DNA of 64,000 nucleotides from a virus, in the IMG/VR virus record IMGVR_UViG_3300049048_000052, positions 86,643 to 150,642 of that record; one strand, given 5' to 3'. The notes below the pieces were generated by a model, which made no database searches, was not told where the DNA came from, and worked only from the letters and a program-made list of their open reading frames with translations. Position numbers and translations under genes: made by a program. Below, piece by piece: positions 14,696 through 59,509 of this stretch (positions are counted from its first letter, which is position 1; the number at the start of each line of letters is the position of its first letter).

Positions 14696-14714
14696 TTGGT
14701 AAATAGAATTAGTC

Positions 14715-15918: not shown

Positions 15919-15954
15919 TCGCCCACTGATAAATATTAAGTAAATCTTAAGATA

Positions 15955-17454: not shown

Positions 17455-17525
17455 CTTTTTATATGGTGGTTTAGTTATAGTGGGTTCGATTCCCACACCA
17501 GGCGTTAGTTAATTAGGGATAATGT

Positions 17526-17933: not shown

Positions 17934-17943
17934 TTGGGACAAT

Positions 17944-18396
17944 ATGTTTGAATTAATACTGACCCTTGTTATGCTGCAATGCTTTGCAGTACTTATATTC
18001 GCAGCCTTTGGTTGGATTTTAGGAGGGGCAGGAGGTGCTGCCTATGGTGTTGCCTCAAGTCTAATGCCTGCCGTATTTGTAATACATTTACCTAGTCTAT
18101 TGGCTAAAGAGATAGCCCTCATATGCTTCCAGGGAACAAGGGACTATGAGATGTTAGCTCATAGGGCGCAATTAGATATAGAGCAGGACCTAGAAGTAGT
18201 ACAGAAGAATCCTAGGGTGGGTAGGTTAGTAAATACTACCAGGGACTGTAAGATAGATTGGATAGAGGATCCCCTAACTAGATTTTTATGGTTAGAGTCC
18301 TACAAGAGAATCTATAATCCCCCTATGAAAAAGCTCTTAGATGAGATAGATAGGAAGAAGATTACAGACAGAAAAGTAGACTGGTTATCTAGGTAG
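17944..18396 (+). CDS. membrane protein (paralog B)
   Basis: TM N-terminus; C-terminal ...DPLTRFLWLESYKRIYN paralogous to 17526..17933. Confidence 0.45.
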   Translation: MFELILTLVMLQCFAVLIFAAFGWILGGAGGAAYGVASSLMPAVFVIHLPSLLAKEIALICFQGTRDYEMLAHRAQLDIEQDLEVVQKNPRVGRLVNTTRDCKIDWIEDPLTRFLWLESYKRIYNPPMKKLLDEIDRKKITDRKVDWLSR

Positions 18397-19317
18397 TTTA
18401 AAGGGCGCACCTAAAGACCGCTTAGGTTGATATGCTTTTGGAAAAGTTACGAGGTACGGTTATGGGACAAGAGAAGAGACCTAACATATTTGATGTGGCC
18501 AAGAGGGTTGAGGAGGAGGATCTAGTATCCTTTAGTGATCTAATAGAGGCAGTGGATGGTCCAGAGGCATTTACCCCTGAAGGCTACGAGGCTGTAGAAT
18601 CATTATTGGAGCGCAACCTCAGTGGTAAGGCCCCTCGTCATATAGCCTAACTAATATTATTGATTGCTTAGTCCGATAAAAGGTTTGTAATGGACATCAG
18701 CAACAACAGCTCCTTCAAAATATTCATCAGTGATGAAGATAAGTTCAAGAGCACATATCCTAAAGTAGGTATGGCATCCCAAGGACTTGTAGATATCTCT
18801 GAGCAGGATATGTCTACTTATGCATTTGTACATTGTGCGGTATATGAGGACGATCCTTATACGTTCGTAGTATTGTACTCAGGTATAGGGGACAACAATA
18901 ATAATATATTAATAGGTCTTACCTACTCTCCAGATGGGACTCTAACTGAGGCCGCAATGGAAGTAGTAATAGACTGGGAACTCTAAGGTTCCACTTATTG
19001 ATTGACCTCACTAATTAAAGGTTATGGAATTAAACCAGAAAGTCCTAGATCAAATGAGAAGCGATCTAGAGAGCTGTAAGCGGTGTGTAGAAATGCCATC
19101 AGCTTCACAGGTGCTGACCCTAATGAGTCATATGGAAGCACTCTTAGACTTTGCAGGACCTGCGTTAGAGTTGGTAGTCCATACAGGCTTAGGGCCGTTT
19201 ATGTTAAAGGTTCCTTATATACCTAAGACATATCCTATGCCTCATGGTAATAACTCGCATGTGACTGACCTACCTACTGGGTAAGATTGATTGCCTAGTA
19301 TCAGATAGGTTACGAGT

Positions 19318-20028
19318 ATGGCAGTATATGACGGTTGCACCATATTAAATCCTAAAGGGGAGTTTCTAACATGGTGCGCCTCCAAAAAAGCAAGATGGTA
19401 TCTCAATAAGGGTAGGGCTAAACTAGTAGACCAGGATAAGGATGGAAGGCTAACTATACAGTTAGAGTTTGAACCTAAGGGACCTGGTGTAATAGATAAC
19501 CCCTACTACAGAGAACCAAAAGAGAATAAGTGTGTAGTCTGTGGGACCACTGATGATTTAACAAGACATCATGTGGTCCCTCGTTGTTATAGGAAACATT
19601 TCCCTAATGATGTTAAGTCTTTTGCTTCTCATGATGTGTTGGCGGTATGTCATGAATGTCATGAGAAGTATGAGGCTAGTGCAGACCTATTCAAGGTAGA
19701 GCTATTAGCTGAGGTAGATATTAAAGAGGAGGATATCCTAAGGATTAATAGTCTGATAAAGGCGGCATCCTCCTATCTATCTACCAACATTAGGAGCCGT
19801 AAGGGTAGTGCTAACTTCAATAGATTAAAGGAGTACTTTGGCACCTCAAATTTCAATAGGTCAGATCTAGAGGAACTAGCTAACCTTAAGATAGATAAGC
19901 ATAGTTATGTTGTATCTAACATAGAGAGTGTTGAACACTTCTGTCAGAGGTGGAGGGAACACTTTGTTAAGTATGCTAAACCCCAGTACCTACCTAAGTA
20001 CTGGACTGTTGAGGGTACATGGTGCTAA
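19318..20028 (+). CDS. HNH endonuclease family protein
   Basis: CVVCG...TRHHVVPRC...CHECH arrangement (Cys pair, HH, distal CxxCH) typical of the HNH motif. Confidence 0.6.
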   Translation: MAVYDGCTILNPKGEFLTWCASKKARWYLNKGRAKLVDQDKDGRLTIQLEFEPKGPGVIDNPYYREPKENKCVVCGTTDDLTRHHVVPRCYRKHFPNDVKSFASHDVLAVCHECHEKYEASADLFKVELLAEVDIKEEDILRINSLIKAASSYLSTNIRSRKGSANFNRLKEYFGTSNFNRSDLEELANLKIDKHSYVVSNIESVEHFCQRWREHFVKYAKPQYLPKYWTVEGTWC

Positions 20029-22743: not shown

Positions 22744-22978
22744 GATGGATAATAACCAATTAATAGAAGCTATAGATGATGCCTTGGTAAATGGTAGTAT
22801 TCCTAGAAATATATATGAGGCCGCTAACAATGCTCAAAACATCCTTGAAGATCCTCCCTTAGCAAGGGCAATCCTGGATATAGGAGAGGCAGTATTTGAT
22901 GGCAAGGTAATTATTGAAGATTAATATTTAAGATGGGACCAAGGTCCCATTATTTGTTTATTGATTAGTGGTTGTGAG

Positions 22979-25475: not shown

Positions 25476-25754
25476 ATGAAACCAGGACCTAAGAAGGGTA
25501 GTAGTCAGAGTAAATCCCATGTTGCCAAGAGGGCCAAGGCTGTAAAAGGTAAGGCCAATGGTATGTTTAAGGATGGAAGACGTTCCTATCGTTCCATAGC
25601 GGGAGCTAGGAATAGCGATGGAAAAGTTGTGCATCACAAGGACGGTGATAGGACCAATAATTCAAGATCTAATCTAAAGGTCCTGAATGATGGTCCTAGT
25701 AGGCCAGGTAGGAAGACAACTAGTAAGCATGAAAGACTTACTAGACGTAAGTAG
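25476..25754 (+). CDS. small basic HNH (HNH_3-type) endonuclease-like protein
   Basis: 92 aa, K/R-rich, with VVHHKDGDRTNNSRSNLKVL (the HH.DG...NN...NL pattern of HNH_3-type homing endonucleases); ends exactly where a tRNA-like gene begins. Confidence 0.5.
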   Translation: MKPGPKKGSSQSKSHVAKRAKAVKGKANGMFKDGRRSYRSIAGARNSDGKVVHHKDGDRTNNSRSNLKVLNDGPSRPGRKTTSKHERLTRRK

Positions 25755-25924
25755 CCAGTGTAGCTTAAAAGGTAAAGCGTACCCCTCTCAGGGTATACCG
25801 AAAGGGTCCATAGGTAATAGGTGTAGTTGCAAGATTCTGTGAGAGTTATAAACTCCGTATTCGGCAGAGTCCCAGACTGCACAACTATACCTATGGATAT
25901 GAGGGTTCGATCCCCTTCACTGGC
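25754..25924 (+). tRNA. tRNA-like gene (anticodon-arm loop CTCTCA, Glu-like) with about 100-nt insertion after the anticodon arm
   Basis: 5' part 25754..25795: acceptor GCCAGTG, D-arm GCTT/AAAAGGTA/AAGC, stem TACCC/GGGTA. 3' part 25901..25924: T-arm GAGGG/TTCGATC/CCCTT, acceptor CACTGGC pairing 7/7. Confidence 0.35.
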
Positions 25925-26012
25925 GTTGACTAAGATAGAACAATGAGACATAAAGAAATGCCCCTCTATGTAAGACACATAAGAGGGGGTCCAATTAACT
26001 TAGGAGTAAATA

Positions 26013-29656: not shown

Positions 29657-30060
29657 CAGATCCGGAGTTAGAGGTCATTAAGCAAAGGGAACTTGATAGG
29701 TGGACCCAAGCTATCATGCTCTTAATGTCTGTGGGCCTAAGTGCGCCCGCATCTATGTCCCATCGTTACGGGTTCTACCTTATCTTTGAGCAGGTTATGA
29801 GACCTGGGCTCACCTGTAATGTTGAGTATATGGCTGATGGTTGGTGTAGAGTAACTCTGACTGATGGTTATACTAAATGGACCGCCTATGGTTACCATTT
29901 ACTCTTTGCTATGACTAAGGCAACCCTACATTACCTTGGGGTTAGTGTGGATACCCTAGAGGACGAGGAAGAAGAATCCGAGTTAAATGAGGTACCTGAT
30001 TTACAGGTCATGATGCCTAGCTTTAAGTGCTAGATAAGAGGGCCCTTATAGGCCCTCTTT

Positions 30061-30081
30061 ATATATAAGGATATAAATATG
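30061..30081 (+). promoter_or_regulatory. GGATATAAAT box abutting the ATG (TATAAATA-like)
   Basis: TATATATAAGGATATAAATATG. The same arrangement (terminator palindrome, GGATATAAAT, ATG) occurs at 59357..59376; related GGTATATAA(G/A/AC)-ATG at 1441, 4441 and 13284. Confidence 0.35.
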
Positions 30082-32473: not shown

Positions 32474-32528
32474 TTAAATCTTGGGGTGTATTTCTACACC
32501 CCACAAACCTATTGATTGAAGGCAACTT

Positions 32529-33787: not shown

Positions 33788-33847
33788 ATCTTAGGGCGTA
33801 AGCCCTTATTCATTCCTCAGTGGCGCAGTGGATAGCGCACCCGCCTT

Positions 33848-34537
33848 TAGGATAGGAGCACTTCTAGGGGAAACCCTTAAAGTGAATGTGGTTAAATTCA
33901 GGGAAGACTAAGTAGATTATGATCAAACTCCCAATGACAGTTAGGACATAGAGGTACTAAGTTGTCTACAGAGTTAATGTCGTTAACTAAGGTTTCATGT
34001 GGAAAACTAGAGATGGCCTTTCTATGGGCTATTTCAACATGTTTGTTATACCCACAGTTAATACAACAAGACCAGTCGAGTTTTGCTGCTACAGCTCTAG
34101 CCCTTGCTCTAACTAAAGCATAGGCTGAGGACCTGTGATGTTTATTGTACATGGCTTCTTCTAAAGTGACATTTAGATTTAGTCCCTTACGATGAGATCC
34201 AAAGCAGGATTTACAGTAGGTTCTGGAGTTACTTATAGGAGTGGTGCATACCAAGCATTTATTCTCGGGTTTCCTCTTGGGGAAATTACGATTATTATGT
34301 GTAGCAGCACAACTCTTACTACAGAACTTAGGGTTAGTTGTTTCCTTATTACAGTTGAGACAATTCATAGTTTATATGTTAATCCTGAGCCAAGCTATTC
34401 GAAAGCCCTATTATATCATGGGTTCGAATAGAAGGTGCAGAGACTTAACAGCCACCACCTAAGGTCATAAGACTATGGTGAAGATAAAGTCCAGACTACA
34501 AACACTCTTGAGTGGCAGCTAAAGCTGTAGTAGGAGG
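33848..34537 (+). mobile_element. group I-like intron in the tRNA anticodon loop (between nt 34 and 35)
   Basis: TTCAGGGAAGACTAAG (33897..33912) and AAGATAAAGTCCAGACTACAA (34481..34501) resemble the group I R and S (P7) elements; terminal G before the 3' exon; about 210 nt of non-ORF sequence. Confidence 0.55.
33898..34368 (-). CDS. HNH homing endonuclease, encoded antisense inside the tRNA intron
   Basis: 156 aa; CINCGYNKHVEIAH...NLVPLCPNCH is a classic HNH motif, plus N-terminal CxxC pairs. Confidence 0.7.
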   Translation of the reverse strand: MNCLNCNKETTNPKFCSKSCAATHNNRNFPKRKPENKCLVCTTPISNSRTYCKSCFGSHRKGLNLNVTLEEAMYNKHHRSSAYALVRARARAVAAKLDWSCCINCGYNKHVEIAHRKAISSFPHETLVNDINSVDNLVPLCPNCHWEFDHNLLSLP

Positions 34538-34595
34538 CTAAGCGGTCGGTCGCAGGTTCGAATCCTGCCTGGGGAGTTTTAGTTAGGAGAAGATC

Positions 34596-35300: not shown

Positions 35301-35863
35301 GATATAGATTGAATACAGAGGGACCTCAGGGTGCTGCGGCTGCGAAGCTTGTAGCTATAGTCGTAGGATCTATTAGCACCTTTATGCTATTAGTGTCCTT
35401 TGCTTACCTATTATTTGGTACGCCCTCAGGGGCTGCTGTCCTAGGTTGCATACTGGGTCTGTTATTGGGAGCTGGGGGTATTGTCCTCTCGGCCATCGGA
35501 TTCATTATGGGTGCCGTAGCTCAGGATGAAGATTAAGTAGTTATTAGGAGTATAGAGAATGCGTAGACATAGCAATGATGATTTCGATTCCATGTTTAAT
35601 AGCATGGCCGATACCATATCCAAGGCCCAGAGGAGAGCTAAGAGAATCTTCCTCATTCTAGGCCTGATATCGGTAAGTGCCCTGTTAGGCTGCTTTTGGG
35701 CTCTGTTTATGGGTAACCTGAGCATGTCCGCAACTGTGGGGGCCTGTCTAGGCATCCTGATTTCAGCACCATTAAGCTGGGTAAGTCTAGCAACTGTATT
35801 GGCTTCGAGTATTAAGGCATAGTTTGACTAACATGGGTATATAGAAGTATACTCATGTAACAT

Positions 35864-36542: not shown

Positions 36543-36725
36543 ATGAGCAAGGTAATATCATCTGGGAACCAACAGAGTGCTTCTGCGTCCAAGAGGAAGC
36601 AACGGGGAGCCAACCTACTGGTGACGACGATCAGACACAACACCCGTTGTAATTGCGGCAGAGTTGTTAATGTAAGTAGGGAGGTGCTTAACTATAAGTG
36701 CCTTACTTGTTATATAGGTAATTGA
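36543..36725 (+). CDS. small Cys-rich (zinc-ribbon-like) protein
   Basis: 60 aa with CNCG...CLTC and an AGGAGTGTAAGGA ribosome-binding site; an overlapping alternative small ORF 36488..36651 also has a CxxC. Confidence 0.3.
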   Translation: MSKVISSGNQQSASASKRKQRGANLLVTTIRHNTRCNCGRVVNVSREVLNYKCLTCYIGN

Positions 36726-36787
36726 TTATTAGGACTCAGTAGGTAACCGCTTACTGAGTCTATTAACTTATTAGGAAGATACTTATT

Positions 36788-43252: not shown

Positions 43253-43311
43253 CTGGTTCTATAAAATAGAACTGGTTGAGGGGGAGTGGTGTAATGGTAG
43301 CCACGCAGGTC

Positions 43312-43857
43312 TTAACTCATTGGAGTTAGTTGGTGTATTAGTTTATAAGCGTTCTTAACTAGATCTCTAGAGAGCATCTTACCACCAGATATCAATTTTA
43401 TAATTGGGTTCTTGCGTGAGTGGTCTAACTGAAATCTAGCTTGAGGATATAAGTCCAGGAAGGATGTGGCAGTATCTTTATTAGAGGCAGCTATTTCTAT
43501 CCTATAAGTCTTAACTTTATAGACTTGTACTAAAAGTTGCTTTATCAGATCTATTAAAGTAGGATCCTGGTTGCAGAAGTAAACATGATTTGTTTTATCT
43601 GTATGCCAGCCCTCACATAAATAGGCCGTATGGGCAGCAATGGAAAGAGGTGTTAGGAGTAAATCATCTGTAGGGGAGATATAGTTCTTCCTAGCTAGAA
43701 AGTTATACTCTGAGGCAGATCTCATTGGTATATGGTACTTCCTTAAGTAAGACCTAATAGTCTTATGGTTACAGGCTAGTAACTGACCTATCTGATAGGG
43801 ATTAAGTTCCTGAGTCAGGTATAGATCCTCAAGTACCTCTTTATTAATTAACTTCAT
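43312..43857 (-). CDS. intron-encoded protein, antisense (HTH plus LAGLIDADG-like, putative homing endonuclease)
   Basis: 181 aa inside the second tRNA intron; N-terminal helix-turn-helix-like segment and AYLCEGWHTDK, loosely resembling a single LAGLIDADG motif. Confidence 0.5.
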   Translation of the reverse strand: MKLINKEVLEDLYLTQELNPYQIGQLLACNHKTIRSYLRKYHIPMRSASEYNFLARKNYISPTDDLLLTPLSIAAHTAYLCEGWHTDKTNHVYFCNQDPTLIDLIKQLLVQVYKVKTYRIEIAASNKDTATSFLDLYPQARFQLDHSRKNPIIKLISGGKMLSRDLVKNAYKLIHQLTPMS

Positions 43858-44111
43858 AATCCTGAGCCTTCATGTAGAAATACATGTTGTGAACGAAGCT
43901 ATATGCGGGAAACGCTTAAAGCCTACAACACTATATGTCTACCAAGATATAAGTAACAGTTTGTAGGATGTAACAATAGCCAATCCGCAGGGAAGATACC
44001 TAGGTATCCCCTCAGAGACTAAACGCTTTGCACCTTAACGTAGAGACGAAGGTGATGATATAGTCCAGACTACAACAGCTTACGCTGGCCTATGAAAGTA
44101 GGAGTAGTAAG
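43314..44111 (+). mobile_element. group I-like intron in the tRNA-Leu anticodon loop (between nt 34 and 35)
   Basis: TCAGAGACTAAACGC (44012..44026) resembles R; GATGATATAGTCCAGACTACAACAGC (44054..44079) resembles S; terminal G; near-identical S region to the first intron. Confidence 0.55.
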
Positions 44112-44266
44112 AGGAACCTGTGCCGCAAGGCGTGAGAGTTCGAATCTCTCCTCCCCCATTTACAGTAGTGAGCACACGGTATGATGTAGGGTTCCCCCTA
44201 CTTGTACTAAGGCTAATACCTTTGCTATATTCACTACTGTAAACATATTGATTGTTTCTAATAATT

Positions 44267-45666: not shown

Positions 45667-45898
45667 TTGTCAGTTTACCTGTCCTGACGTTGTGAAAAGA
45701 TAGGTGTAGGTCATAGGCCTAACTAGCAAGAATTGAGTTCGAATCTCAACAGGTCCATTTCGAGGGCCTGACTTGGTAATCGATTGTTAGCATGAGGAAC
45801 TATGACTGAAGGTGTGTACAACCAAAGTACAGAACAACAAGTGCAACCAATAACATTGTACCCTTCTCAAGGGTAAGTTCTATAGTAGTGTAATCTAC

Positions 45899-46663
45899 TC
45901 AGGCGTTTAGTATACTAAACGCCTGCTCTTTTTTACGCATACAGTAGGGACCACCTAAGTTATATAACCTAAATATAAAAGTCTTAAGGATTTTACCTTG
46001 AAAGGAGAAACCGTACTGATTATTCCAGTTGGGATTCTTACTTTGCAAGTCCCTCATATGTACATTAAGGGATATATCTAGTAGTTTGTTGAGCCTAGAG
46101 GCTAGAGTATACATAAAAGACTTTGAGCATCCATAGGCTGTAAGTCTACGGGAGGACCAACACCCGTCAGAGTCTAGATATCCTCTAATGAAATCTAACT
46201 CGTAGACGCTGTCTATAAGAGGCTCAGGGTAAATCATAGTCTTGGACTTATTACTTTCTAACTTTAGGATAGTAGTTAGATCTCTATGTAGACTAGTGGA
46301 ACATATAGCGAGCTGAAGACAGTTAGAAGCTATATTCCTTATTTTATAATCGGTATTGAGGTTAGATTGTATCTGTTCTAGAATATCCCTGTCCGAGGTA
46401 GTAAATACTATCTGACATCCATTTCTATGTAAGTGACCATCCCCATACAATACACCTAACATCCAAGCTTTAAAGGTGTCCATAGGGAACAATTTATAGT
46501 TCTTAAGCTTAGATAATGGCTTATAGGACATTGCCCCGGAGCTCTGCAGGACTTTGTATATACAATAAGAGGATAGCCCTAATTTAGAACTAATATTTGT
46601 AACAGACTGACCCTCCTTATACATAGTTATAATAGGCGTTGGGTTAATATGAGTAGATTTCAT
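45899..46663 (-). CDS. LAGLIDADG homing endonuclease (two-motif type)
   Basis: WMLGVLYGDGHL and FIRGYLDSDGCW are the two LAGLIDADG motifs; N-terminal HTH-like segment. Confidence 0.7.
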   Translation of the reverse strand: MKSTHINPTPIITMYKEGQSVTNISSKLGLSSYCIYKVLQSSGAMSYKPLSKLKNYKLFPMDTFKAWMLGVLYGDGHLHRNGCQIVFTTSDRDILEQIQSNLNTDYKIRNIASNCLQLAICSTSLHRDLTTILKLESNKSKTMIYPEPLIDSVYELDFIRGYLDSDGCWSSRRLTAYGCSKSFMYTLASRLNKLLDISLNVHMRDLQSKNPNWNNQYGFSFQGKILKTFIFRLYNLGGPYCMRKKEQAFSILNA

Positions 46664-47578: not shown

Positions 47579-47998
47579 ATGAGTCTTAGTCAGCAAGTAA
47601 AAGATTTCTTAAGTGTGGCCCCAGCTAGCTGGATTCCTCCAAGGAAACTTATCACTACTAAGTTGAGAGAGCCTATCAAGGGATGTCCTCAACTGAATGT
47701 TTACCCCCTGAACCAAGTACTAGAAATTAGCATGGATGGGGCACCCTTCTATCAACCCAATACTATATGTAGACTAACGGATTCAGATTTCCAGTTCACT
47801 ATGGTCTACGTTCCAGGAAGGGGTCCCATAGAAGTCTATGTGATTAAAGATCAGAGTACTGCCTATGTGTTTGAGGATCAGGTAGAGGCCTTTGCATTCC
47901 TCTACACTATTAAGCCCTACGAGCTAACTCAACTGGACGGAGATCCAACCTATGAGTGGGCACAGTTCAGATCTCACCTAGCCCCAGTACCCGCTTGA
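47579..47998 (+). CDS. hypothetical protein
   Basis: 139-aa ORF followed by a perfect 22-nt palindrome. Confidence 0.45.
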   Translation: MSLSQQVKDFLSVAPASWIPPRKLITTKLREPIKGCPQLNVYPLNQVLEISMDGAPFYQPNTICRLTDSDFQFTMVYVPGRGPIEVYVIKDQSTAYVFEDQVEAFAFLYTIKPYELTQLDGDPTYEWAQFRSHLAPVPA

Positions 47999-48033
47999 TA
48001 TAATTATGACTACAGTATATACTGTAGTCACTG

Positions 48034-50276: not shown

Positions 50277-51301
50277 TTAATACATTTGGAGAAGAGTATG
50301 TCGGAAGTCTGGTTGGCTATAGGTATTACTATGTGGTTATGTGTAGGTATAGGAGCTATGTTCCTTAACCTCTTTAAGATTAGTATAAAAGAGTTTATGG
50401 GAGTGAAGACTGATGCGGTCCATCTTACGTTAATGTCTTTATCTATCATTGCTCTGGGCCCAATAGGTCTAGCCATTGTTATTTGGGGGTAATATGAAGG
50501 ATCCAAAACAGAATCCTGGTCAGGCCGCTGCTGCGGTCGCTATTGTTGTAGGCTTGATTGCAGGGGGCGCAGTTATAAGGGACGAGATCGTTAGGAACGT
50601 CAATACTCAGGAGCAAAAGCATGACCGATAAGAAAGAAGAGAAGGATACTGGTAAAGGTTCAAGTAATAAACCGATAACTAAGGAAAGCGATAAACCAAA
50701 CGGCGGATCACAATATATCGGCGGTATACCTGGCCTGGGGGATAAATGAAGTTAGTGTCTATTTGTCTAGGGTTCCTAGCAGTAGTTACGGGACTGTGTT
50801 TTATATCTATTCAATCCAACCTACCCTGCGATTCGTGGGTGATGGGGATGGCTATGACTTACCTATTATCATTGGGAGGTATATCCTTCCTCTTATACAC
50901 TGTTTGATTAATGAAGGGGCCTCAATTAAGGGGCCCATAAAAGGAGAAAGATGATTGGAACAATGTGGAGAAATAGAGTCAGTGGTATACCCCATTGGGT
51001 GGTAGGTCATATGATTATAAATCCTATAAGATTAGATACCCACACTAATACTCACGGTACGTGGATCATATTAGAACATAGGGCAAGTGGACCTAAGGAA
51101 CTATATGTTTCTGAGCATGAGCTATCTGAGCTCTATAATATGGAAGGCAATATATGATAATGGAATTCTGGATGCAGCCTGTTATACAGGAGTTTGCTAC
51201 TGTAATATTGCTTTCTATCGTGGCCCCTATATTGATATCATTGCTATTCTATTGGTTGTATAAGGATTAATTGATTGGTTACTTAGTAAGGAATCAATAT
51301 A

Positions 51302-51631
51302 ATGGCAGTTATCCAATTAGATAATGGTATTCACTTTGAGGGTACCAATGAGGCTGTGCTAATGGTTGCAGAGGCAGTTAAGCCAGTTAAGCCTTTAGCC
51401 ACTGACCTGAAGAAGCATGAGGATTATGTACACATGTCCCATGGCGGCCCTATTAAAGTCGGTGCTATGTCTAAGCAACATATGGCTAACCTTATAAAGA
51501 AGGACATAGAGACCTTGGTTAAGTTCTCTAGTCTTAGAGATCTGTGCGATATAGCAGAGCTATTAGGCGGACGTCTTGATAGAAGGGCTATAGAGTCTAT
51601 CATTAAGGTAGCTAGGGCTCGTAATTATTGA
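51302..51631 (+). CDS. hypothetical protein
   Basis: 109-aa ORF. Confidence 0.45.
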   Translation: MAVIQLDNGIHFEGTNEAVLMVAEAVKPVKPLATDLKKHEDYVHMSHGGPIKVGAMSKQHMANLIKKDIETLVKFSSLRDLCDIAELLGGRLDRRAIESIIKVARARNY

Positions 51632-51663
51632 TTGATATATATATATATAAATAGGAAGTACTT

Positions 51664-51969
51664 ATGAAGGTTACTGTAAAAGGTGTAACGATTGAGGGTA
51701 GTGAGGATCAAGTAGCGGCAGTCCTTAGGGCTATGGGTGAGGGAGATGGTGAGTTGTTCTATAACTCTACTAGCAAAGGTCTAATACTCATTGCTAGTAT
51801 GAATGCGGTTCACCTTAGGAATGCACTTATGGTTGAGTATGAGAAGTGGTTAGCCAGCCTAAAAGCTTTGGATGTTAACAAACTAATTGCTGCTATTGAG
51901 GAAGGTCCTACGGATAATAAAACTCTCATGGCCCTATACAAAGAACTAAAGGGTAGACCTGCTCATTAA
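51664..51969 (+). CDS. hypothetical protein
   Basis: 101-aa ORF. Confidence 0.45.
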   Translation: MKVTVKGVTIEGSEDQVAAVLRAMGEGDGELFYNSTSKGLILIASMNAVHLRNALMVEYEKWLASLKALDVNKLIAAIEEGPTDNKTLMALYKELKGRPAH

Positions 51970-52032
51970 TATTATATATTGACTGATTACTTAATAGGTG
52001 ACTAGGAGGCCAATGGCCCCTTTCTTATAACT

Positions 52033-52467
52033 ATGACTATTGAAATACAAGTACACAATAGAGAGACTATTGTTAAGGCAGTAACAGAGTTGCCCAAGGG
52101 CAACCGTACGATGGTTATCAGTATAACCAATGAGCAAGACTGGCCTCGACTACCTCCTGTGAAGCTAGAGGAGTACGTTATGCTCAGCTTCTATGATAAT
52201 GATGGGCCTGATAGTTGTACACCATGTATGACCAGGGGACAGGCTAAGAGAGTAGTATCTACCTTTATGGCATGTAAGGATAAGCTAACCCATCTGCTAA
52301 TCAATTGTGATGCTGGAATATCCCGAAGCGCAGGTATGGCAGAAGCTTTCTCGCTACTTGTGTATGGTAAGGACTATTACTATACATGTGATAGAATCCC
52401 CGCCCCTAATGCTTGGGTGAAGAGGCTGACATTGGAGGCCGGGGGTCTTGCTCATGGCTACCAGTGA
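52033..52467 (+). CDS. Cys-based CX5R phosphatase (PTP/DSP-like fold)
   Basis: LINCDAGISRSAG gives the HCxxGxxR(S/T)-type P-loop with the catalytic Cys. Confidence 0.5.
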   Translation: MTIEIQVHNRETIVKAVTELPKGNRTMVISITNEQDWPRLPPVKLEEYVMLSFYDNDGPDSCTPCMTRGQAKRVVSTFMACKDKLTHLLINCDAGISRSAGMAEAFSLLVYGKDYYYTCDRIPAPNAWVKRLTLEAGGLAHGYQ

Positions 52468-52729
52468 TGATAAGGAGAAGGCTGAGAGGCTTAAATATAG
52501 GAAGTCAGTCCTAGGACCTACTATTGTTAAGGCCCATGATGCTCTATCAACTATGAGTAAAGGGGAGAGAGCCGATCTAATAGAGGAGCTCAAGTTAGAC
52601 CCATCTATATTCGATGTTAAAAAAGCGCCTAAGAAAGAGAAGGATGCACTGACCATATGGGATTTCATATGGTTCAGTCTATGCCTTCTGTTTGGTATTA
52701 GGGTTGTCATAGTTCTTATGAGGTGAGGA

Positions 52730-53032
52730 ATGAATATCGCTTTGGCACTGACGCTGGTTAGTCAACCGGTATTATTAAGTCAGTTACCTAAATGTAATGA
52801 TGCAGCAGGTAGCTACTCCTATGTTTCTATTCCGGCTATTAAGAGGTCTCAAGCACAGTCAGATATGGCCCAGGCTCTTAGAGACTCAGGAGGTGGTAGT
52901 CAAGCTACCTGTATTGGCGGTGATAATAGTACTAAGACTATTGGGTTTGCTCTAAATAGTAATCATGCTTTTAGAGAACTACCCCGTAAATTAAGAGCTA
53001 TGGGATACTCACCTGGTATTCATTACCGGTAA
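52730..53032 (+). CDS. secreted small protein
   Basis: N-terminal signal peptide MNIALALTLVSQPVLLS. Confidence 0.4.
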   Translation: MNIALALTLVSQPVLLSQLPKCNDAAGSYSYVSIPAIKRSQAQSDMAQALRDSGGGSQATCIGGDNSTKTIGFALNSNHAFRELPRKLRAMGYSPGIHYR

Positions 53033-53040
53033 TTCCAACT

Positions 53041-53079
53041 TTATTGACTTTATTGATTGGTCCGCTTTTATTGATTGTG
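53041..53079 (+). promoter_or_regulatory. three copies of the TTATTGA(C/T)TG motif upstream of gene 53115
   Basis: TTATTGACTTTATTGATTGG ... TTTATTGATTGTG; the same decamer recurs at 4412, 15513, 18657, 18996, 22957, 32511, 44245, 51266, 53574 and 57175. Confidence 0.45.
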
Positions 53080-53114
53080 AAAACAAACACAAACAAAAAG
53101 GATCAATTTCTATC

Positions 53115-53564
53115 ATGGCTAACGTAATCACTGCACAAACCCCCATCCGTATCACCATTGCTACCCCCGGTCGTAATGGTAATATCAGTGGGGATATTGT
53201 ATCTCGTGTAGTAATGGCAAGCGTACTGGGCTTCCCCAAAGAGGGTTTGGAAGCCCCAGTATTCCCTCAACAAGAGGTAGCATCTATCAATGGTAATGAG
53301 AAGCTGACGGCCGCTGATAAGCAGTCCCGTGTTAACGCTATCATTCTTGAGTACACTGAAGCCCAGAATGCATTCCTGCATTCTGGTGGCGTCAATGCAT
53401 TGGATATGGTGCCCTCTGCTGTTGTGGATTATCTGGTAGCACATGAAGGCTTCTCTGCTAATGGTAGAGATGAAAAGCCTTATGTTCGTGCTACGGACTT
53501 GGTTGCTAACTTCGTTGAAGATGGCACCGCTGTCCAAGTTTATCCTAGCGCAACCTGGGGTTAA
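53115..53564 (+). CDS. hypothetical protein
   Basis: 149 aa; three copies of the TTATTGA(C/T)T motif within 75 nt upstream. Confidence 0.5.
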   Translation: MANVITAQTPIRITIATPGRNGNISGDIVSRVVMASVLGFPKEGLEAPVFPQQEVASINGNEKLTAADKQSRVNAIILEYTEAQNAFLHSGGVNALDMVPSAVVDYLVAHEGFSANGRDEKPYVRATDLVANFVEDGTAVQVYPSATWG

Positions 53565-53616
53565 TACCTAGGCATATTGATTTTATTGATTGTCCCTATT
53601 AGTTTGAATTAGGACA

Positions 53617-55104
53617 ATGGAAGTGGATAGAGTTAGTTACAGACAATACAGTCCTGCACTGAGAAGATTAAACCTCAGGGATGGTAAATACTATCTGGAC
53701 TATGGGTATGATGATATAGAAGTAAAGCTGCAGCCCTTATCTGAGTTAGGTAAGAAGCTACTGGGTGATAATACTTCTAGAGTTATAGATCGTAGATTAC
53801 TCAATAAGTATGACTTTGATGATGGGCACTGGAGGATCAACGGTAGATTCTGTAAGACTCCTGTGGTACCAGTCTATCTAGACTCGTTACTGAATAACTC
53901 TCACCCTCTAATGACCTTGGGTGATGATGTGGCAGGTATTGTAGAGCTAGGGGAGAAGCTCTTAGCTGACTTTCAGCCCCCTCAGATCAATAATGAGGGC
54001 TACACTAAGATACTTACTCAGGGTACACATGATAGATCAGGTCACTTCTACCCTCGTCTGACTCAGGTTACAATCAATGGCAAGGGGGGAATAGATGATA
54101 AGACTGAGGAACTCTACCGTCTTATCAGTAGTTACTTGGAGATCCTTGATGTCTCTGGAGTGGCAGTTAGGGATAGTGCTATCTACACATCCGTAGTCCA
54201 TCAGAAACTTAAGGAGGCTAAGGTCACCATAAGAAACGCTAGGGATGAGCATGCTGGAGGTGGTCGCCCTGATATCCTGTTTGCGGATACGCTAAGTGTT
54301 CCCAAGCTTACGGAGGAAGAGGCAGCAAAGCTAATCATGAACGCACGTAGAGAGAATAGGTTGAGAGGTTACATAACTGATAAACCTACACTCTCTGAGT
54401 TGGAAGATAACACTGAGATGCTAGCTAAGTTCCAGGAAGCTACTAAGTCTATTAAGGGCTTAGTTATTAGCTATCTCCGTAAGCGTGATCCCATTGTATT
54501 CACCGCAGGTAGTAACTTCGGGGTTTCACCTGAGGCTTGGAATATGGATCTTGAGGAGAAGGATAGAATGGGACCCCTAACCGCTATCATAGATCATGAG
54601 GGTAATATAGGTTGGGGTAGCCCTCATAAAGAGGGTAACCGTATGATCTCCAACAATGGTCCTATTGTTCACTATATGGGCCCTAGCTGGTGTGTTAGAT
54701 TCCATTATGTGAATGATGAGGGTGTTACCATCGATGTGCTTCAGGATAATGAGATATTCTGCGTCACAGGTCAGATGTATGCAGATGCTATTAGACCTTA
54801 CCGGCCAGACCTGCTAGAGTTATGGCAACCAGATCCTGAGGCTATCTACTTTGTATGTAGCTACTGGTGCCAAAGAAGTGGGGCCTTTGCTAAGCATAAC
54901 GGTATCCTGGACTTCTATAATGTCTTCCGTATGCGTTGGACATTGGCAGAATGGATTACATATTCTCTAGTGCCTAAGTGTGTAAACATGGGTATTAACA
55001 TACCTGGTTACAATGAGAAAGCCATGGTTGATGGACAGACTCAGTCCGCCAGACTTGCAGCTATCAAGGATTATCTAACTAAGGCTAATGCCCTTAAAAG
55101 TTAA
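53617..55104 (+). CDS. hypothetical protein (first gene of the E1-like operon)
   Basis: 495 aa; motif upstream; 12-nt gap to the next gene. Confidence 0.55.
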   Translation: MEVDRVSYRQYSPALRRLNLRDGKYYLDYGYDDIEVKLQPLSELGKKLLGDNTSRVIDRRLLNKYDFDDGHWRINGRFCKTPVVPVYLDSLLNNSHPLMTLGDDVAGIVELGEKLLADFQPPQINNEGYTKILTQGTHDRSGHFYPRLTQVTINGKGGIDDKTEELYRLISSYLEILDVSGVAVRDSAIYTSVVHQKLKEAKVTIRNARDEHAGGGRPDILFADTLSVPKLTEEEAAKLIMNARRENRLRGYITDKPTLSELEDNTEMLAKFQEATKSIKGLVISYLRKRDPIVFTAGSNFGVSPEAWNMDLEEKDRMGPLTAIIDHEGNIGWGSPHKEGNRMISNNGPIVHYMGPSWCVRFHYVNDEGVTIDVLQDNEIFCVTGQMYADAIRPYRPDLLELWQPDPEAIYFVCSYWCQRSGAFAKHNGILDFYNVFRMRWTLAEWITYSLVPKCVNMGINIPGYNEKAMVDGQTQSARLAAIKDYLTKANALKS

Positions 55105-55116
55105 CTAGGAAATAGA

Positions 55117-55821
55117 ATGAATCTAATATTAGTTGGGGCTGGGCAATTGGGCTCAGCCTTTATCTTGGAATTGCTTAAACGGATATCGGCTACAGGTTTC
55201 ACTGCTATCACTATACATATCTATGATGATGATATCGTAGAGGATAGGAATACCCATGTACAGTATTTCACCCCCAGGGATCGAGAGAAGCCCAAGGCTG
55301 TGGTTATGGCTGACCTGGCTGCAGAGTATGGTATAAAGGCCATCGCCCATGTTGAGCGCTTTGCCTTCCCAGATCTACAAGCTATGGAGAACGTGGTAGT
55401 GGTTGATGCTGTAGACAATGTCAGCACCAGGTATGCTCTGTGGAACTATGCGGTAACACAGAATGTACCCCTGATGACTATGGGTAATAGCCTGAAGGGT
55501 AATGGCTTTGTCACATGGACCTGTGCTGCCTTTGATCACAACACCTGGGGCCTAGGTGCAGGTAGCTACACTGCAATCATGAATGCAATCGAGAAAGAAA
55601 AGGAACCTGAAGAGAAGGTACCCCCTTGTGAACTAACTAAGTATAGAGGTCTAGCCCTTAATACTGCGTTGGCCGCATGTGAGGCATTCCTTATCTATTG
55701 GGGTCAGGATGTCATGATTAGAATAGACCCTGAGGTATATCAAGCTGGCTTCGTCACTGAGTGGCGTATCAAGCCCGAGGGTTATGAGTTGGTTCACATT
55801 AGTTATATGGAAGGTAAGTAG
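55117..55821 (+). CDS. ThiF/MoeB (E1-like) adenylyltransferase family protein
   Basis: LVGAGQLGSAF Rossmann GxGxxG followed by IHIYDDDIVEDRNTHVQYF (matches the ThiF D.D.Ve.sNl.RQ block); C-terminal GLALNTALAACEAFLIYWG resembles the ThiF C-terminal motif. Confidence 0.6.
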   Translation: MNLILVGAGQLGSAFILELLKRISATGFTAITIHIYDDDIVEDRNTHVQYFTPRDREKPKAVVMADLAAEYGIKAIAHVERFAFPDLQAMENVVVVDAVDNVSTRYALWNYAVTQNVPLMTMGNSLKGNGFVTWTCAAFDHNTWGLGAGSYTAIMNAIEKEKEPEEKVPPCELTKYRGLALNTALAACEAFLIYWGQDVMIRIDPEVYQAGFVTEWRIKPEGYELVHISYMEGK

Positions 55822-57156
55822 ATGGTTTATTATCAAGCAGCAGCAAGTCTAACTCCTAAACTCTATGTAGAGGTTGTAGGTGGTATCAATTGGCATATCA
55901 CATCAGCCACTCAGTACCTTATCAATATTGTTAAGGAGCATATGGATTGCTTCGAGGGTATTGCTGATGGGGTAAAGTATGTTAAGGCCTTGATCCCGCC
56001 AGAAAGAGCGGCCTACACATCATCAACACCACAGGTCCTTACTTGTGGTCTAGTGGCAACCTCAGCCTACATGAAACACAATCTGGGGATGGAAACAGAT
56101 AACCATGATGAGTACTGGTACAAGACTCATCCTCTATGTGTTGCATCTGGTTTACCTCAGCAACATACGCTGAGTGTTATCCATCATCTGGTCAACCCTT
56201 ATGGCCTGGGTATCTCTAAGGTATTCCATCGACGTGGAGTATCTATGAGCCCTGATGCTATTAAGTGGATGACTTATCTACCTCCTAATCCTATGGGCTA
56301 TGGTAATCGTACTACTAGCAATAAGGAATATGCGGAGCTATGTGGCTTTGATCCTAAAGTTGTAGAGTCGGAGTACTCTACGGAGTTCGTGGATAAGCCT
56401 AAGGGTCCTGTTATCCTGTTCAATGCAGTGGCAGCTACTACATCCTTTGCTAGTGGAGGGGGCCACGCTAGTTATGCAGGTCCTAGAGCTAAATTCCATA
56501 GTTGGGAGATGGCCATCCGACTTGATAGACTGGAGAGGATCAACTATGCAGTTGAACCTGAGATCGTTGAGGTTGAGCCTAAGCTAAATCAAGTCCTAGA
56601 TGTATGGAAGTGCTTGACCAAGGATGGTGCAACTCTTGAGAGCAAGAAGCCTCAGGGTACTACCTTTGTTGTGCCTCCTATGCAGAAGAGTCTATTGCCT
56701 CTATTACCCTCTAATAATAGTCTTATTATCAGTAAGGGAGAGTTTGAGGACTTCAAGAGATATAATCCTAACCGGATTACGGATGATGACTATAAGGAAG
56801 TATTGAAGCATCCTGTAAATAAGGAGAGGGTAGAAAGCTTCCTTAGTATGTTGATGAATGAAGTCGATAAACTAGGTGAGACATCTGACATTCTGGTGGC
56901 GGCGGGTGGTGTTAAACTAAAGGATCTATCTCAGAAGATAGGCGCTGTCCAATGTATCACAGACTTGAAGAATAAGTTATGTGCTATAGCCAAGGGTGTT
57001 ACTGAGCTTACCTTATCAGATATCATCTATTTCAACCGGCAGTTGGTCGAGGATAAGACCTATGATATTATCTGGGCACTTGGTGACGAGATGCTAGATA
57101 ACATGTTGGATGAATGGATTCTGAACCTGTATGGTGTTAACGACTATACTAAATGA
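55822..57156 (+). CDS. hypothetical protein (third gene of the E1-like operon)
   Basis: 444 aa; its ATG immediately follows the E1-like stop. Confidence 0.55.
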   Translation: MVYYQAAASLTPKLYVEVVGGINWHITSATQYLINIVKEHMDCFEGIADGVKYVKALIPPERAAYTSSTPQVLTCGLVATSAYMKHNLGMETDNHDEYWYKTHPLCVASGLPQQHTLSVIHHLVNPYGLGISKVFHRRGVSMSPDAIKWMTYLPPNPMGYGNRTTSNKEYAELCGFDPKVVESEYSTEFVDKPKGPVILFNAVAATTSFASGGGHASYAGPRAKFHSWEMAIRLDRLERINYAVEPEIVEVEPKLNQVLDVWKCLTKDGATLESKKPQGTTFVVPPMQKSLLPLLPSNNSLIISKGEFEDFKRYNPNRITDDDYKEVLKHPVNKERVESFLSMLMNEVDKLGETSDILVAAGGVKLKDLSQKIGAVQCITDLKNKLCAIAKGVTELTLSDIIYFNRQLVEDKTYDIIWALGDEMLDNMLDEWILNLYGVNDYTK

Positions 57157-57214
57157 GTACTTTTAGTACTCTAACTATTGATTGAATTGATTTACTCTTT
57201 ATTATTGGTCCAGT

Positions 57215-59326
57215 ATGGATAGAAGATATTTTGAACTGATTAAACCTAAGTACTTGACTTGGGAGTTTCTATCTAAGTATGTGGAGGTCAAGCCTCCTTT
57301 TGGGGCTATAGGACCCATCGTATATCTAAGGACATACTCTAGGTTTGTCCCTCAAATGAGCAGGAGGGAGTTGTGGTGGGAGACCTGTATGAGGGTAACT
57401 GAATATAGTATGTCCCTATTCCCAGCTAAGCCTAGGTACCCTATGTCCTTCGAGGAGTTACAGGCAGAGGCAGAGGAACTCTTTGATAACCTATTCTGGA
57501 TGAAGGTCTTTGCTGCAGGGCGTACTATGTTCACTGGAGGGGCCCAACTGAAGACTGGGGACTCTCAATTCAATTGTAGCTTTATTGCTGTTAGTGAGTT
57601 GAAGGCATTCAAGGATGCCCTGTATCTCCTGATGAATGGTTGTGGTGTTGGTTTCTCAGTTGAGAGGCAGTACACGGAGAATCTACCCAGGTTCAGACAG
57701 GACTTTAAGGTTAGACATCTGGATTATAATCCGATAGCTAGGGGAAAAAGAGAGGACATCACTCGTCTTGAAGAGGATGATAACAACCACATAATCAAGA
57801 TAGGAGATAGTAAGGAAGGCTGGTGCGATGCACTGTTTGGTTTCCTGTCTAACTTAGCAGATCTGAGCTGTTGGAAGAACTTTGTATTTATATACAACGA
57901 TGTCAGACCTGAGGGTGAGAAGCTTAAGACCTTTGGTGGTAGAGCCAGTGGGCCTGCACCCCTAAGACTAATGTTCGAGCGTATTGAACAGACCATCAAG
58001 GAAGCGCCTAAGGGTCATCTGAGACCTGTAGACGTAATGGATATCATGAATATCATTGCGGCCGCAGTAGTTGTAGGTGGTGTCCGTAGGTCCTCTGAGA
58101 TTGCCTTTGGTAACCTAGATGATGTGGACTTCGTAGAGGCTAAGCTGAACCTATGGTCTGATCCAGATAAGCAAAGGTACCAGGCTACTAGAGTTCTCTC
58201 CAATAACTCTGTGGCTATATGGGAGAAACCTAGTAAGGCCCAGCTAGTAGATATATTTGAACGTATTAAGAATAATGGTGAGCCTGGCATCTCTATTGCA
58301 GGTAATGCCGCTAAGAGAAGACCTAACTATAAGGGCTCTAATCCATGTCATGAGATCCTATTGGATCATAATGGAGTATGTAATTTAACTACTATAAATA
58401 TGGCTGCCTTTGTGGAGGCTGATCGTATCTTTAACTGGAAGGCCTTTGAGAGAGCGCTTTATCATGCAGTCCGTATGGGTTCCCGTATTACCAATGTTAA
58501 TATGTGGGATCCTGATTGGGATTATGTTCAGAAGAGAGACCGCCTACTAGGTGTATCCCTAACTGGTCAAATGGACTGCTGGAATAAGATGGGGGTAGAC
58601 TTTGATAGTACTACTGCCATCAATATACTCTCTAGTGCTAAGGCTTATGCTAGGGCATACGCAGATGAATACCATAATATCATGGGTATTCCTACATCCC
58701 TTCTGATTACTACTGTTAAACCAGAGGGCACGATCTCTCAGTTACCTACAGTAAGCAGTGGGGTCCATGCTAGTTATGCTCCTTATTACATTAGGAGAGT
58801 AAGGATTAGTAGTAATGATCCTGTGGCTAAAGCACTAAGGGACATGGGTCTAGAACCTCAGCCTGAGAATGGACAAGGTAAAGACCTGGATGCTCCTGAC
58901 TGTTCCACCTGGGTATTCAGCTTCCCCATTAAGACTGATGCTAAGATCAGGGCCATTGATGAGCCTGCGATCCGTCAGCTTAAGAGGTACAAGGTTATGA
59001 TGGATGAGTATGTTGATCATACTTGTTCTATTACCGTTACTGTGGCCCCGGATGAATGGGATGAGGTAGTAGATTGGGTCTACGACAATTGGGAGTCCTG
59101 TGTAGGTATTGCATTCTTACCTAGGTTTGATCCTAGTGAGCCGGGTAACATGTACCCTCAGATGCCATATGAGACATGTACTGAAGAACAGTACCATGAG
59201 ATGGTTAAGGCCATGGGTACCATCGATGAGGATGAGCTTGTAGCTTTGATCTCAGTCTTTGAGCAGGAGTACGAGGAGCATGAGCTTGATGCAGGCTGTG
59301 CTACTGGTATGTGTCCCGTTAGATAA
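57215..59326 (+). CDS. ribonucleotide reductase large subunit (class II-like, monomeric type)
   Basis: 703 aa; GSNPCHEIL active-site block (the SN(P/L)C.EI thiyl-radical loop); C-terminal cysteine pair GCATGMCP. Confidence 0.7.
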   Translation: MDRRYFELIKPKYLTWEFLSKYVEVKPPFGAIGPIVYLRTYSRFVPQMSRRELWWETCMRVTEYSMSLFPAKPRYPMSFEELQAEAEELFDNLFWMKVFAAGRTMFTGGAQLKTGDSQFNCSFIAVSELKAFKDALYLLMNGCGVGFSVERQYTENLPRFRQDFKVRHLDYNPIARGKREDITRLEEDDNNHIIKIGDSKEGWCDALFGFLSNLADLSCWKNFVFIYNDVRPEGEKLKTFGGRASGPAPLRLMFERIEQTIKEAPKGHLRPVDVMDIMNIIAAAVVVGGVRRSSEIAFGNLDDVDFVEAKLNLWSDPDKQRYQATRVLSNNSVAIWEKPSKAQLVDIFERIKNNGEPGISIAGNAAKRRPNYKGSNPCHEILLDHNGVCNLTTINMAAFVEADRIFNWKAFERALYHAVRMGSRITNVNMWDPDWDYVQKRDRLLGVSLTGQMDCWNKMGVDFDSTTAINILSSAKAYARAYADEYHNIMGIPTSLLITTVKPEGTISQLPTVSSGVHASYAPYYIRRVRISSNDPVAKALRDMGLEPQPENGQGKDLDAPDCSTWVFSFPIKTDAKIRAIDEPAIRQLKRYKVMMDEYVDHTCSITVTVAPDEWDEVVDWVYDNWESCVGIAFLPRFDPSEPGNMYPQMPYETCTEEQYHEMVKAMGTIDEDELVALISVFEQEYEEHELDAGCATGMCPVR

Positions 59327-59509
59327 ACAATAAGGGCCCCATATGGGGCCCTTAATAATTAGAGGATATAAATATGAATAATGAAGAGCGTAGAACACAC
59401 CTCAATAATCAGAGGGACCGTATAACTAAAAGAATGGAAGCAGCTAAGGATAACCCTGAGTTGCTAGCTATTCTAATAGAAGAGGAGAAGGGTCTCTGGA
59501 ATCAGCTAT

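Follow-up and report, generated by a model that had tools for sequence, protein, structure and literature searches.

In phage T4, late promoters carry a TATAAATA box at -10, which is read by the host core polymerase together with gp55, gp33 and the gp45 clamp. T4 middle promoters combine a MotA box, 5′-(a/t)(a/t)(a/t)TGCTT(t/c)A-3′, centered at -30, with a sigma-70 -10 element, and involve AsiA and MotA; the MotA box requires TAnnnT 11-13 bp downstream, and transcription starts ~25 nucleotides (nt) past the box. The T4 RegA operators, in turn, overlap the Shine-Dalgarno (SD) sequence and the AUG and follow a loose AU-rich consensus. In the Bacillus jumbo phage AR9, the early promoter reads AAATATATATTAT-N6-G(+1) and the late promoter AACA-N6-T(A/G), with the last base as the start; the late promoter of phiKZ is TATG, with the G as the start, and some AR9 genes are preceded by doubled or shifted extra promoters (PMC5312081). 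Here, we describe a short motif that recurs before gene starts in a 64-kb stretch of DNA (the window; positions 86,643 to 150,642 of the uncultured virus record IMGVR_UViG_3300049048_000052). The original prediction, made for window positions 53041-53079, proposed a phage promoter element or a site for a phage regulator. Based on the sequence, placement and strand of the motif, we regard it as most likely the phage's own promoter box.

Exact-protein look-ups place the window within a ~250-kb phage, represented by a 183,128-nt Logan contig, whose base 17,991 is window base 1, and by a 251,778-nt JGI contig. With the flanks recovered in this way, 79,168 nt were assembled (window coordinates -7243 to 71,925; hereafter, 79 kb), which is about one third of the ~252-kb phage genome and the part covered by the scans. 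The window has a GC content of ~42%, and its genes lie nearly all on the plus strand.

In the window, the sequence ATTGAYTK occurs 27 times against 9.5 expected, a count reached in none of 100 shuffles, and 24 of these matches are on the plus strand. Likewise, TTATTGATTG with at most one mismatch gives 20 matches against 5.6 expected, and the top enriched 7-mer of the non-coding sequence is ATTGATT. Across the 79 kb, 23 of the 35 plus-strand copies of ATTGAYT sit 0-45 nt upstream of a called start (7.6% expected, p=6e-18), as do 16 of the 18 exact plus-strand copies of ATTGATTG (within 45 nt of a start codon, p=4e-16); the minus strand holds only 2 exact copies. Inside genes, the frequency of the motif does not depart from the chance level given by codon shuffles. 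The enrichment upstream of genes relative to coding sequence, compared over the 79 kb, therefore agrees with the original prediction, since the motif is concentrated near starts and at chance level within genes. Altogether, 27 copies at 20 loci were counted in the window; they occupy ~17 of the ~44 intergenic spacers of at least 18 nt and mark about one fifth of the early-type genes of the phage. The motif is missing upstream of every one of the 17 called minus-strand genes, those of a cluster at 65-71 kb included.

The placement claimed earlier was borne out before the genes starting at 4455, 15544, 18690, 19024, 22979, 32529, 44267, 51302, 53115, 53617 and 57215. The supposed start at 16513 has to be withdrawn: this TTG falls within the first copy of a motif triplet, and the likely start is GTG 16564, which opens an uncalled open reading frame (ORF) of 50 amino acids. 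Additionally, the earlier list omitted the sites before 3512, 7799, 13848, 19318, 36788, 51664 and 52033, and four more sites lie just beyond the window, at window coordinates -3461, -2806, 64069 and 64749.

The logo obtained from the motif-aligned sites reads 5′-tTATTGATTG-3′, with T-rich positions at -2 and -1, and nothing is conserved further 5′ of the motif. Positions 1-7, ATTGATT, are effectively invariant, and the one-mismatch variants found near starts vary almost solely at position 8; position 6 also accepts a C, which is found in the single copy at 51978 and in three distal members of tandem arrays. The final position is G at 16 of 23 sites and a purine at 19 of 23. The motif carries ~12.6 bits of information, a value somewhat inflated by the choice of sites, and ~12.3 bits are needed to select 31 sites from 2 x 79 kb; because the information content approximately matches the need, no second element is required. 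A literature search for the motif sequence returned no relevant paper.

Taking the first A of ATTGATTG as column 0, we found that the last G of the motif lies 8-59 nt from the start codon, with a main mode at 19-25 nt (14 of 23 sites) and a second group at 8-12 nt, and that the motif is positioned just 5′ of the SD sequence. A TA step occupies columns 15-16, i.e., ATTGATTG-N7-TA, at 11 of the 23 sites, while the other columns from 8 to 29 show it at 0-7 sites (binomial P=5e-5, before correction for ~22 columns); counting any pyrimidine-purine step at columns 15-16, the number rises to 15. Realigned on the ATG, these genes give at most 6 TA steps in any one column; the TA step is anchored on the motif, neither on the ATG nor on the SD. 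Shared ancestry of the leaders does not explain this step, because the spacers of the 11 TA sites are mutually unrelated, with the exception of one pair. No start codon begins before column 16, and at the shortest spacings, which are those of window site -3461 and of a site at 11583 in L060, a distant relative described below, the ATG begins exactly at column 16. In tandem copies with a 9-nt period, the terminal TG of a copy falls on columns 15-16 of the preceding upstream copy.

No close relatives of the phage were found in the collections searched (megablast and tblastn against cultured phages; IMG/VR), and megablast gave no nucleotide match to the window among cultured phages. The nearest relatives of its ribonucleotide reductase are 56% identical, with no match in IMG/VR, and an IMG/VR scan for tandem motifs gave 54 hits, all chance or coding (e.g., IDW repeat proteins) and none from a relative. 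The rIIB protein does have homologues, the best being that of L060 (52% identity; GC content 39%), which also shares an adenosyltransferase, a C39-like peptidase and one further protein with the window. L060 does not use ATTGATTG; nevertheless, an unbiased count of the 7-mers in the 52 nt upstream of its starts ranks TTGATGG, a one-base variant of the window motif, as the commonest, with 5 genes against 3 for the runner-up. Of the eight plus-strand copies of TTGATGG in L060, five are within 45 nt of a start (p=1e-4), and four of those are intergenic, 7-24 nt before the ATG, including one before rIIB. The motif is absent from L061, L062, L143 and L144 (rIIB 47-50% identical), some of which have other upstream motifs. 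In L143 and L144, two Logan contigs with rIIA/rIIB, the upstream motif is TAAATACAC, with (T)AAATACAC preceding three genes per locus, 15 to ~42 nt from the start codon; L131 has an extended -10 sequence, TGATATAAT, 22-31 nt before the ATG. In the IMG/VR rIIB loci L118 and L126, ATTGACA-N17-TAnnnT is found with the ATG a constant 29 nt past the -35 hexamer, which points to leaderless or near-leaderless early messenger RNAs (mRNAs). The picture suggested by these upstream sequences is one of rIIB phages with lineage-specific promoter boxes close to their start codons, and the window motif sits where the recognizable -10-type boxes of the relatives sit.

All of the sites in the window described here are on the plus strand. 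The flagged triplet, at 53041-53077, consists of TTATTGACT, TTATTGATTG and TTATTGATTG, with the first A of each copy at 53043, 53052 and 53070 (offsets of 9 and 18 nt); a distance of 37 nt separates the proximal copy from ATG 53115 of a 149-amino-acid ORFan, and the third copy stays in the 9-nt register. Tandem arrays of 2-3 copies were found at five loci, four of them with an exact 9-nt period. At 53574-53592, two copies 9 nt apart precede a 495-amino-acid ORFan, with the proximal copy 24 nt before ATG 53617. At 57175-57193, 3′ of the hairpin GAGTAC/GTACTC, two copies with the same spacing precede the gene for class II ribonucleotide reductase, which lacks an SD, the proximal copy being 21 nt before ATG 57215. 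The triplet at 16510-16541 (ATTGACTT, ATTGATTT and ATTGATTG; offsets of 9 and 13 nt) has its proximal copy 22 nt before GTG 16564, and two overlapping copies offset by 8 nt, ATTGACTT and ATTGATTA, are located at 4410-4427, 27 and 35 nt before ATG 4455 of the rIIB-like gene. The ORFans of 149, 495 and 444 amino acids lie behind the strongest arrays (53115-57156) and flank a ThiF/E1-like gene at 55117-55821. No homologue of the 495-amino-acid protein was detected among 5.8 billion proteins, and neither it nor its neighbors of 149, 444 and 674 amino acids have a significant sequence match in the PDB.

Single copies account for the other loci. Three successive genes carry the motif at 18657-18666 (TTATTGATTG, 23 nt before ATG 18690), 18995-19004 (TTATTGATTG, 19 nt before ATG 19024, with TA at columns 15-16 and a small hairpin just 5′, at 18977-18992) and 19284-19293 (ATTGATTG, 24 nt before ATG 19318). 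The motif overlaps an upstream gene in several places. At 3482-3491, ATATTGATTG, 20 nt before ATG 3512, overlaps the 3′ end of a cobalamin adenosyltransferase-like gene (2758-3543). Gene 7198-7773 uses the TGA of the motif at 7767-7776 (ATTGATTG, 22 nt before ATG 7799, TA at columns 15-16) as its stop codon, and gene 51302-51631 uses that of the motif at 51625-51634 (TTATTGATTG, 29 nt before ATG 51664); ORF 11001-11375 likewise ends at the TGA of 11369-11378, an orphan ATTGATTG with no start codon within 45 nt. Short spacings are seen at 13827-13836, where ATTGATTT abuts the SD AGGAG 11 nt before ATG 13848; at 22958-22967, where TTATTGATTA directly follows a terminator-like hairpin (22932-22951) with its T run, 11 nt before ATG 22979; and at 32509-32518, where ATTGATTG lies 3′ of the hairpin GGGGTGTA/TACACCCC and abuts the SD AAGG, 10 nt before ATG 32529. 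In front of an HSP20 gene, ATTGATTG at 44245-44254 is 12 nt before ATG 44267, which has no SD, and 24 nt before the alternative ATG 44279. Two further sites have ordinary distances, i.e., TTATTGATTG at 15513-15522 (21 nt before ATG 15544) and ATTGATTG at 51268-51277 (24 nt before ATG 51302). The variant ATTGACTG at 51976-51985 is 47 nt before the called ATG 52033 and 26 nt before an upstream ATG at 52012, and the least typical site, ATTGATTA at 36719-36728, is separated from ATG 36788 by 59 nt that include a strong hairpin. Over 30 nt, the leader at -2806 to -2777, outside the window, is nearly identical to that at 15515-15544 (ATTGATTGTCTTACCTA..GT..AGACAGT), and the genes that follow, an RNA ligase gene (-2806) and a 124-amino-acid ORF (15544), are unrelated, which suggests duplication or exchange of promoter-leader cassettes.

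Approximately 80% of the genes of this phage are ORFans, and the genes recognizable in the readable part are of the early or auxiliary kind. They include the rIIB-like gene (4455-5300, plus strand), an rIIA-like ATPase gene (from 61959), the class II ribonucleotide reductase gene (57215-59326, plus strand), and genes for RNA ligase, Thg1, two HSP20 proteins and a 2OG-Fe(II) oxygenase, along with 13-16 transfer RNA (tRNA) genes. Past window position 65,000, the orientation switches to the minus strand, in the 65-71 kb cluster; two products of this cluster match genes of other phages annotated as tail-collar or tail-fiber genes, and Microcystis phages supply more of the matching records than any other group. 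As the reductase and a DUF7873 protein also find their best matches in phages of filamentous cyanobacteria, the gene content gives a hint of a cyanobacterial host.

Compared with the described systems, the motif most resembles promoters of the AR9/phiKZ type, with which it shares a short, conserved single box, a fixed non-conserved spacer, a T-purine step at the start (here a proposed one), the lack of a -35/-10 pair, dozens of copies placed right before genes, occasional doublets, and the setting of a jumbo phage. The arrangement of box, spacer and T-purine that defines this type is present here at the sequence level, with the start position a predicted one. The differences from AR9 are the sequence itself, the spacer of 7 nt instead of 6, and the predicted leaders of 0-30 nt instead of 26-491 nt. 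The T4 late promoter is likewise an 8-bp single element without a -35, very near start codons, and it is read via a phage-encoded specificity factor, as the motif would be; this phage also shares rIIA/rIIB-like genes with T4. However, the sequences are unrelated, in line with the distinction from the T4 late TATAAATA box drawn in the original prediction, as the motif reads tTATTGATTG. Moreover, the proposed box would span -16 to -9 rather than lie at about -10, and it marks rIIB, ribonucleotide reductase and RNA ligase, which are early or middle genes in T4. In the 79 kb, TATAAATA itself occurs 8 times on the plus strand and 4 times on the minus strand, with inconsistent placement. Two spacers, 30034-30078 and 59327-59373, are built alike, with a GGGCCC-type hairpin followed by an identical GGATATAAATATG; in both, TATAAATA sits between the SD and the ATG, and hence it is not a T4-type late promoter there.

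With T4 middle promoters, the motif has in common a phage-specific box in place of a -35, a location before rIIB and nucleotide metabolism genes, and tens of copies per genome. The MotA-type geometry was nevertheless rejected: there is no TAnnnT 11-13 nt downstream and no T at column 20, and the start codons are too close. The RegA operators resemble it in serving an early regulon that includes rIIB and in being a sense-strand sequence of the translation initiation region; unlike them, the motif lies 5′ of the SD, does not overlap the SD or the start codon, is strict, and has a TA step anchored to it.

We consider it somewhat more probable than not that the motif defines a lineage-specific promoter class for non-structural genes, served by a phage-encoded or phage-modified polymerase or specificity factor, with the start ~9 nt past the last G. 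In this proposal, TTATTGATTG would be the recognition box of a single-element phage promoter that drives many co-oriented non-structural genes, i.e., those for rIIB, RNA ligase, HSP20 and class II ribonucleotide reductase and small ORFans. Transcription would start at the A of the TA step, 9 nt past the last G, giving 5′ leaders of ~11-17 nt that retain the SD, while at the shortest sites the transcript would begin at or beside the ATG. The reader of the box would be a phage polymerase or specificity factor, or the host polymerase re-targeted by a phage protein, presumably encoded outside the readable 79 kb, and the tandem copies with the 9-nt period could act as stacked promoters. This proposal draws on the strict conservation of the motif, an information content close to the need, its strand specificity and its restriction to one gene class, and also on the motif-anchored pyrimidine-purine step and the hard lower bound on the spacing. 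Additionally, several copies follow terminator-like hairpins, as in terminator-promoter junctions; a one-base variant occupies the same position in the distant relative L060; and the motif is the sole recurrent intergenic signal for ~130 co-oriented genes, no other being available to serve them. The strand specificity, the tie to start codons, the absence before all called minus-strand genes, the N7-TA step and the L060 variant favor the direction of the original prediction, and the promoter itself is what we infer from them.

Several observations weigh against the promoter reading. No RNA polymerase, sigma-like or MotA-like gene was found among the precomputed Pfam hits of the 79 kb, nor among the best 25 of the 61 PHROG families matched by the 125 window proteins. 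In these hits, which come from about one third of the genome, there are likewise no split beta/beta′-like polymerase subunits and no gp55-type sigma or gp33 co-activator, and the large ORFans of 495, 444 and 674 amino acids have no sequence match in the PDB. Codon shuffles detected no avoidance of the motif inside genes. Many intercistronic hairpins run straight into an SD and ATG, leaving no space for a promoter; this implies frequent read-through transcription, so that not every motif strictly needs to be a promoter. Copies before each of 3-5 successive small genes would suit a per-gene RNA element equally well, and only half of the sites show the TA step, as do 2 of the 4 intergenic L060 sites. 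Finally, a good SD abuts the motif at 3 of the 5 short-spacing window sites (-3461, 13829 and 32511) and at L060 11583. Such an SD would precede the proposed start, which is the chief internal difficulty of the promoter model, unless read-through transcripts of those genes are translated.

A bolder version of the proposal, which we hold to be doubtful though worth stating, is that this uncultured ~250-kb phage lineage has an unrecognized transcription apparatus, i.e., a divergent polymerase or a new factor that requires no -10, starts 9 nt past the box and has drifted in specificity by one base relative to its relatives. If true, TTGATTG and TTGATGG would form a natural pair for learning how such a factor reads DNA.

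The resemblance of the motif to known signals admits other explanations, of which two concern familiar elements of transcription. TTGACT and TTGATT agree with TTGACA at 5/6 and 4/6 positions, the distant rIIB phages L118 and L126 use ATTGACA-N17-TAnnnT directly upstream of genes, and two good sigma-70-type promoters precede window tRNA genes (35824-35853 and 47995-48023), all of which would suit ATTGAYT being the -35 hexamer (TTGACA-like, with an A upstream) of ordinary host sigma-70 early promoters. This is very improbable, since no -10-like hexamer (TAnnnT) lies 16-18 nt downstream, where the logo is flat (columns 23-30), and the start codons are so near (8-37 nt past the motif) that a canonical sigma-70 start would land inside the gene. 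The -35 reading was rejected on this spacing and the absent -10. The leaderless geometry of L118 and L126 does not fit either, given that relatives with true sigma-70 promoters keep a constant 29 nt and the spacings of the motif differ; furthermore, sigma-70-type matches in the window do not exceed chance (52 vs 50, 32 vs 52 and 38 vs 43). It is hardly more credible to assign the motif to the 3′ end of the preceding transcript instead of to the downstream gene, as the U-rich tail of intrinsic terminators or an RNA-processing site. A terminator scan did read it as a T-rich tail at 18977-18992 and 53554-53572, the upstream 45 nt fold with z <= -1.5 at 6 of 23 proximal sites, and 3 of the 4 intergenic L060 copies are directly 3′ of a GC-rich hairpin; however, most sites lack an upstream hairpin, the sequence there being coding, and this minority (6/23) led us to reject the terminator tail. 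The distance to the upstream stop codon varies while that to the downstream start is constrained, many window hairpins have no motif, and neither the tandem copies nor N7-TA would be explained.

Explanations at the level of RNA or of a DNA-bound regulator are less improbable. As RNA, UUAUUGAUUG in leaders and intercistronic regions could be an operator or enhancer, bound by a phage RNA-binding protein or ribosomal protein S1, that controls the translation or stability of an early regulon, similarly to T4 RegA or to AU-rich leader boxes. Its position just 5′ of the SD with a preferred ATG distance (14 of 23 sites at 19-25 nt), its restriction to the sense strand, the single copy per gene through runs of consecutive genes (18657-19293 and 51268-53592) and the tandem copies, which fit cooperative binding to single-stranded RNA, are compatible with this role. 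Moreover, because many hairpins lead directly to an SD and ATG, transcription reads through them and motif-containing read-through transcripts must exist, and a permutation test showed stronger pairing of each motif flank with its own leader than with foreign ones (p=0.002). Nevertheless, seven invariant positions are unusually strict for a translational operator, the conserved TA is anchored to the motif and not to the SD or ATG, the 9-nt tandem period would have no rationale, and we found no complementary RNA in the 79 kb; as the complement CAATCAAT is confined to genes and a single leader, an antisense partner RNA was discarded. Leader folding z-scores are no stronger for motif genes than for non-motif genes, the 3′ half of the motif is paired at 9 of 15 sites against 42-54% in controls, and the L060 leaders have no hairpins; a leader hairpin in which the 3′ half (AUUG plus 3-4 nt) pairs near the SD or ATG, seen by eye at ~8 sites, was dropped after three negative controls. 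On balance, we judge an RNA-level element unlikely. Equally to be weighed is a DNA operator, with a phage or host regulator acting on consensus-less promoters and the motif not itself a polymerase element. The high information content, the direct-repeat arrays of 2-3 copies and the lineage-specific variant in L060 would fit an operator, as would the likeness to the -35 hexamer (TTGATT, TTGACT), a type of site bound by sigma region-4-like helix-turn-helix proteins; region-4-like domains are indeed present in distant rIIB phages (Sigma70_r4 in L062, faint hits in L143). An operator is also unlikely: no core promoter element other than the TA is conserved on either side of the motif, the 9-bp tandem period does not match the helical repeat, the window yielded no helix-turn-helix candidate, and a start site explains the lower spacing limit and the pyrimidine-purine step better.

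The two sigma-70-type promoters mentioned above, TTGACT-N18-TATACT (35824-35853) and TTGATA-N17-TATACT (47995-48023), are the sole convincing ones on the plus strand, and both end ~10 nt before a tRNA gene (tRNA-Tyr at 35863 and tRNA-Thr at 48033). The tRNA genes may thus be on host-type promoters and many protein genes on the ATTGATTG box.

The tRNA region has features of its own. Two tRNA genes are seemingly interrupted by group I introns (33813-34577 and 43280-44158). Rfam places the introns at 33837-34513 and 43845-44086, and ARAGORN, with long introns allowed, reports a tRNA-Ser(gct) with a 690-nt intron and a tRNA-Leu(tag) with a 798-nt intron; ORFs lie on the opposite strand of these regions at 33898-34368 (a weak HNH_2 hit) and 43312-43857 (no family hit). 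At 25754-25925, ARAGORN calls a tRNA-Gly(ccc) with an 85-nt intron, and Rfam scores a tRNA with 38.7 bits over the same 172 nt. The T-arm-like sequence GGTTCGA(A/T)TCC has several copies in the non-coding stretches 9658-10092, 14330-14714, 15135-15519 and 17456-17525; in the 79 kb, it occurs 13 times on the plus strand and never on the minus strand, about half of the copies being outside called tRNAs. A weak match to YrlA, a tRNA-like Y RNA, was obtained at 9670-9790 (26.8 bits against a gathering score of 69), and these stretches may be tRNA-like or degenerate tRNA elements. Directly 3′ of tRNA-Met, ARAGORN proposes a transfer-messenger RNA (tmRNA)-like gene with a tag peptide (45668-45984); this call is probably spurious, given that Rfam reports no tmRNA there at the gathering threshold and that the region runs into the 3′ end of a LAGLIDADG-like ORF on the minus strand (45899-46663). 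In window positions 1-20000, terminator-like hairpins are more numerous than expected (36 against 13). The 515-nt non-coding stretch at 8396-8910 contains three GC-rich hairpins, each followed by a pyrimidine-rich TTTCC or TTTCT and, slightly further 3′, by a TATA-rich run (TATATAA after two of the three).

Class-specific promoter boxes are an expected kind of feature, which most well-studied large phages have; what is new here is the consensus, and promoter-like boxes specific to one gene class are a familiar feature of large phages. Its practical value lies in the annotation of this uncultured lineage. If the promoter reading is correct, the transcription units of an uncultured jumbo phage could be read directly from the motif, and ~25 genes of the region would fall into one expression class. 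A cognate polymerase or specificity factor would then be predicted elsewhere in the genome, with a specificity that differs by one base in the L060 lineage, and the one-base variant in the relative would help to match factor and box through their co-variation. This phage would also be one more large phage that does not rely on host-type -35/-10 promoters.

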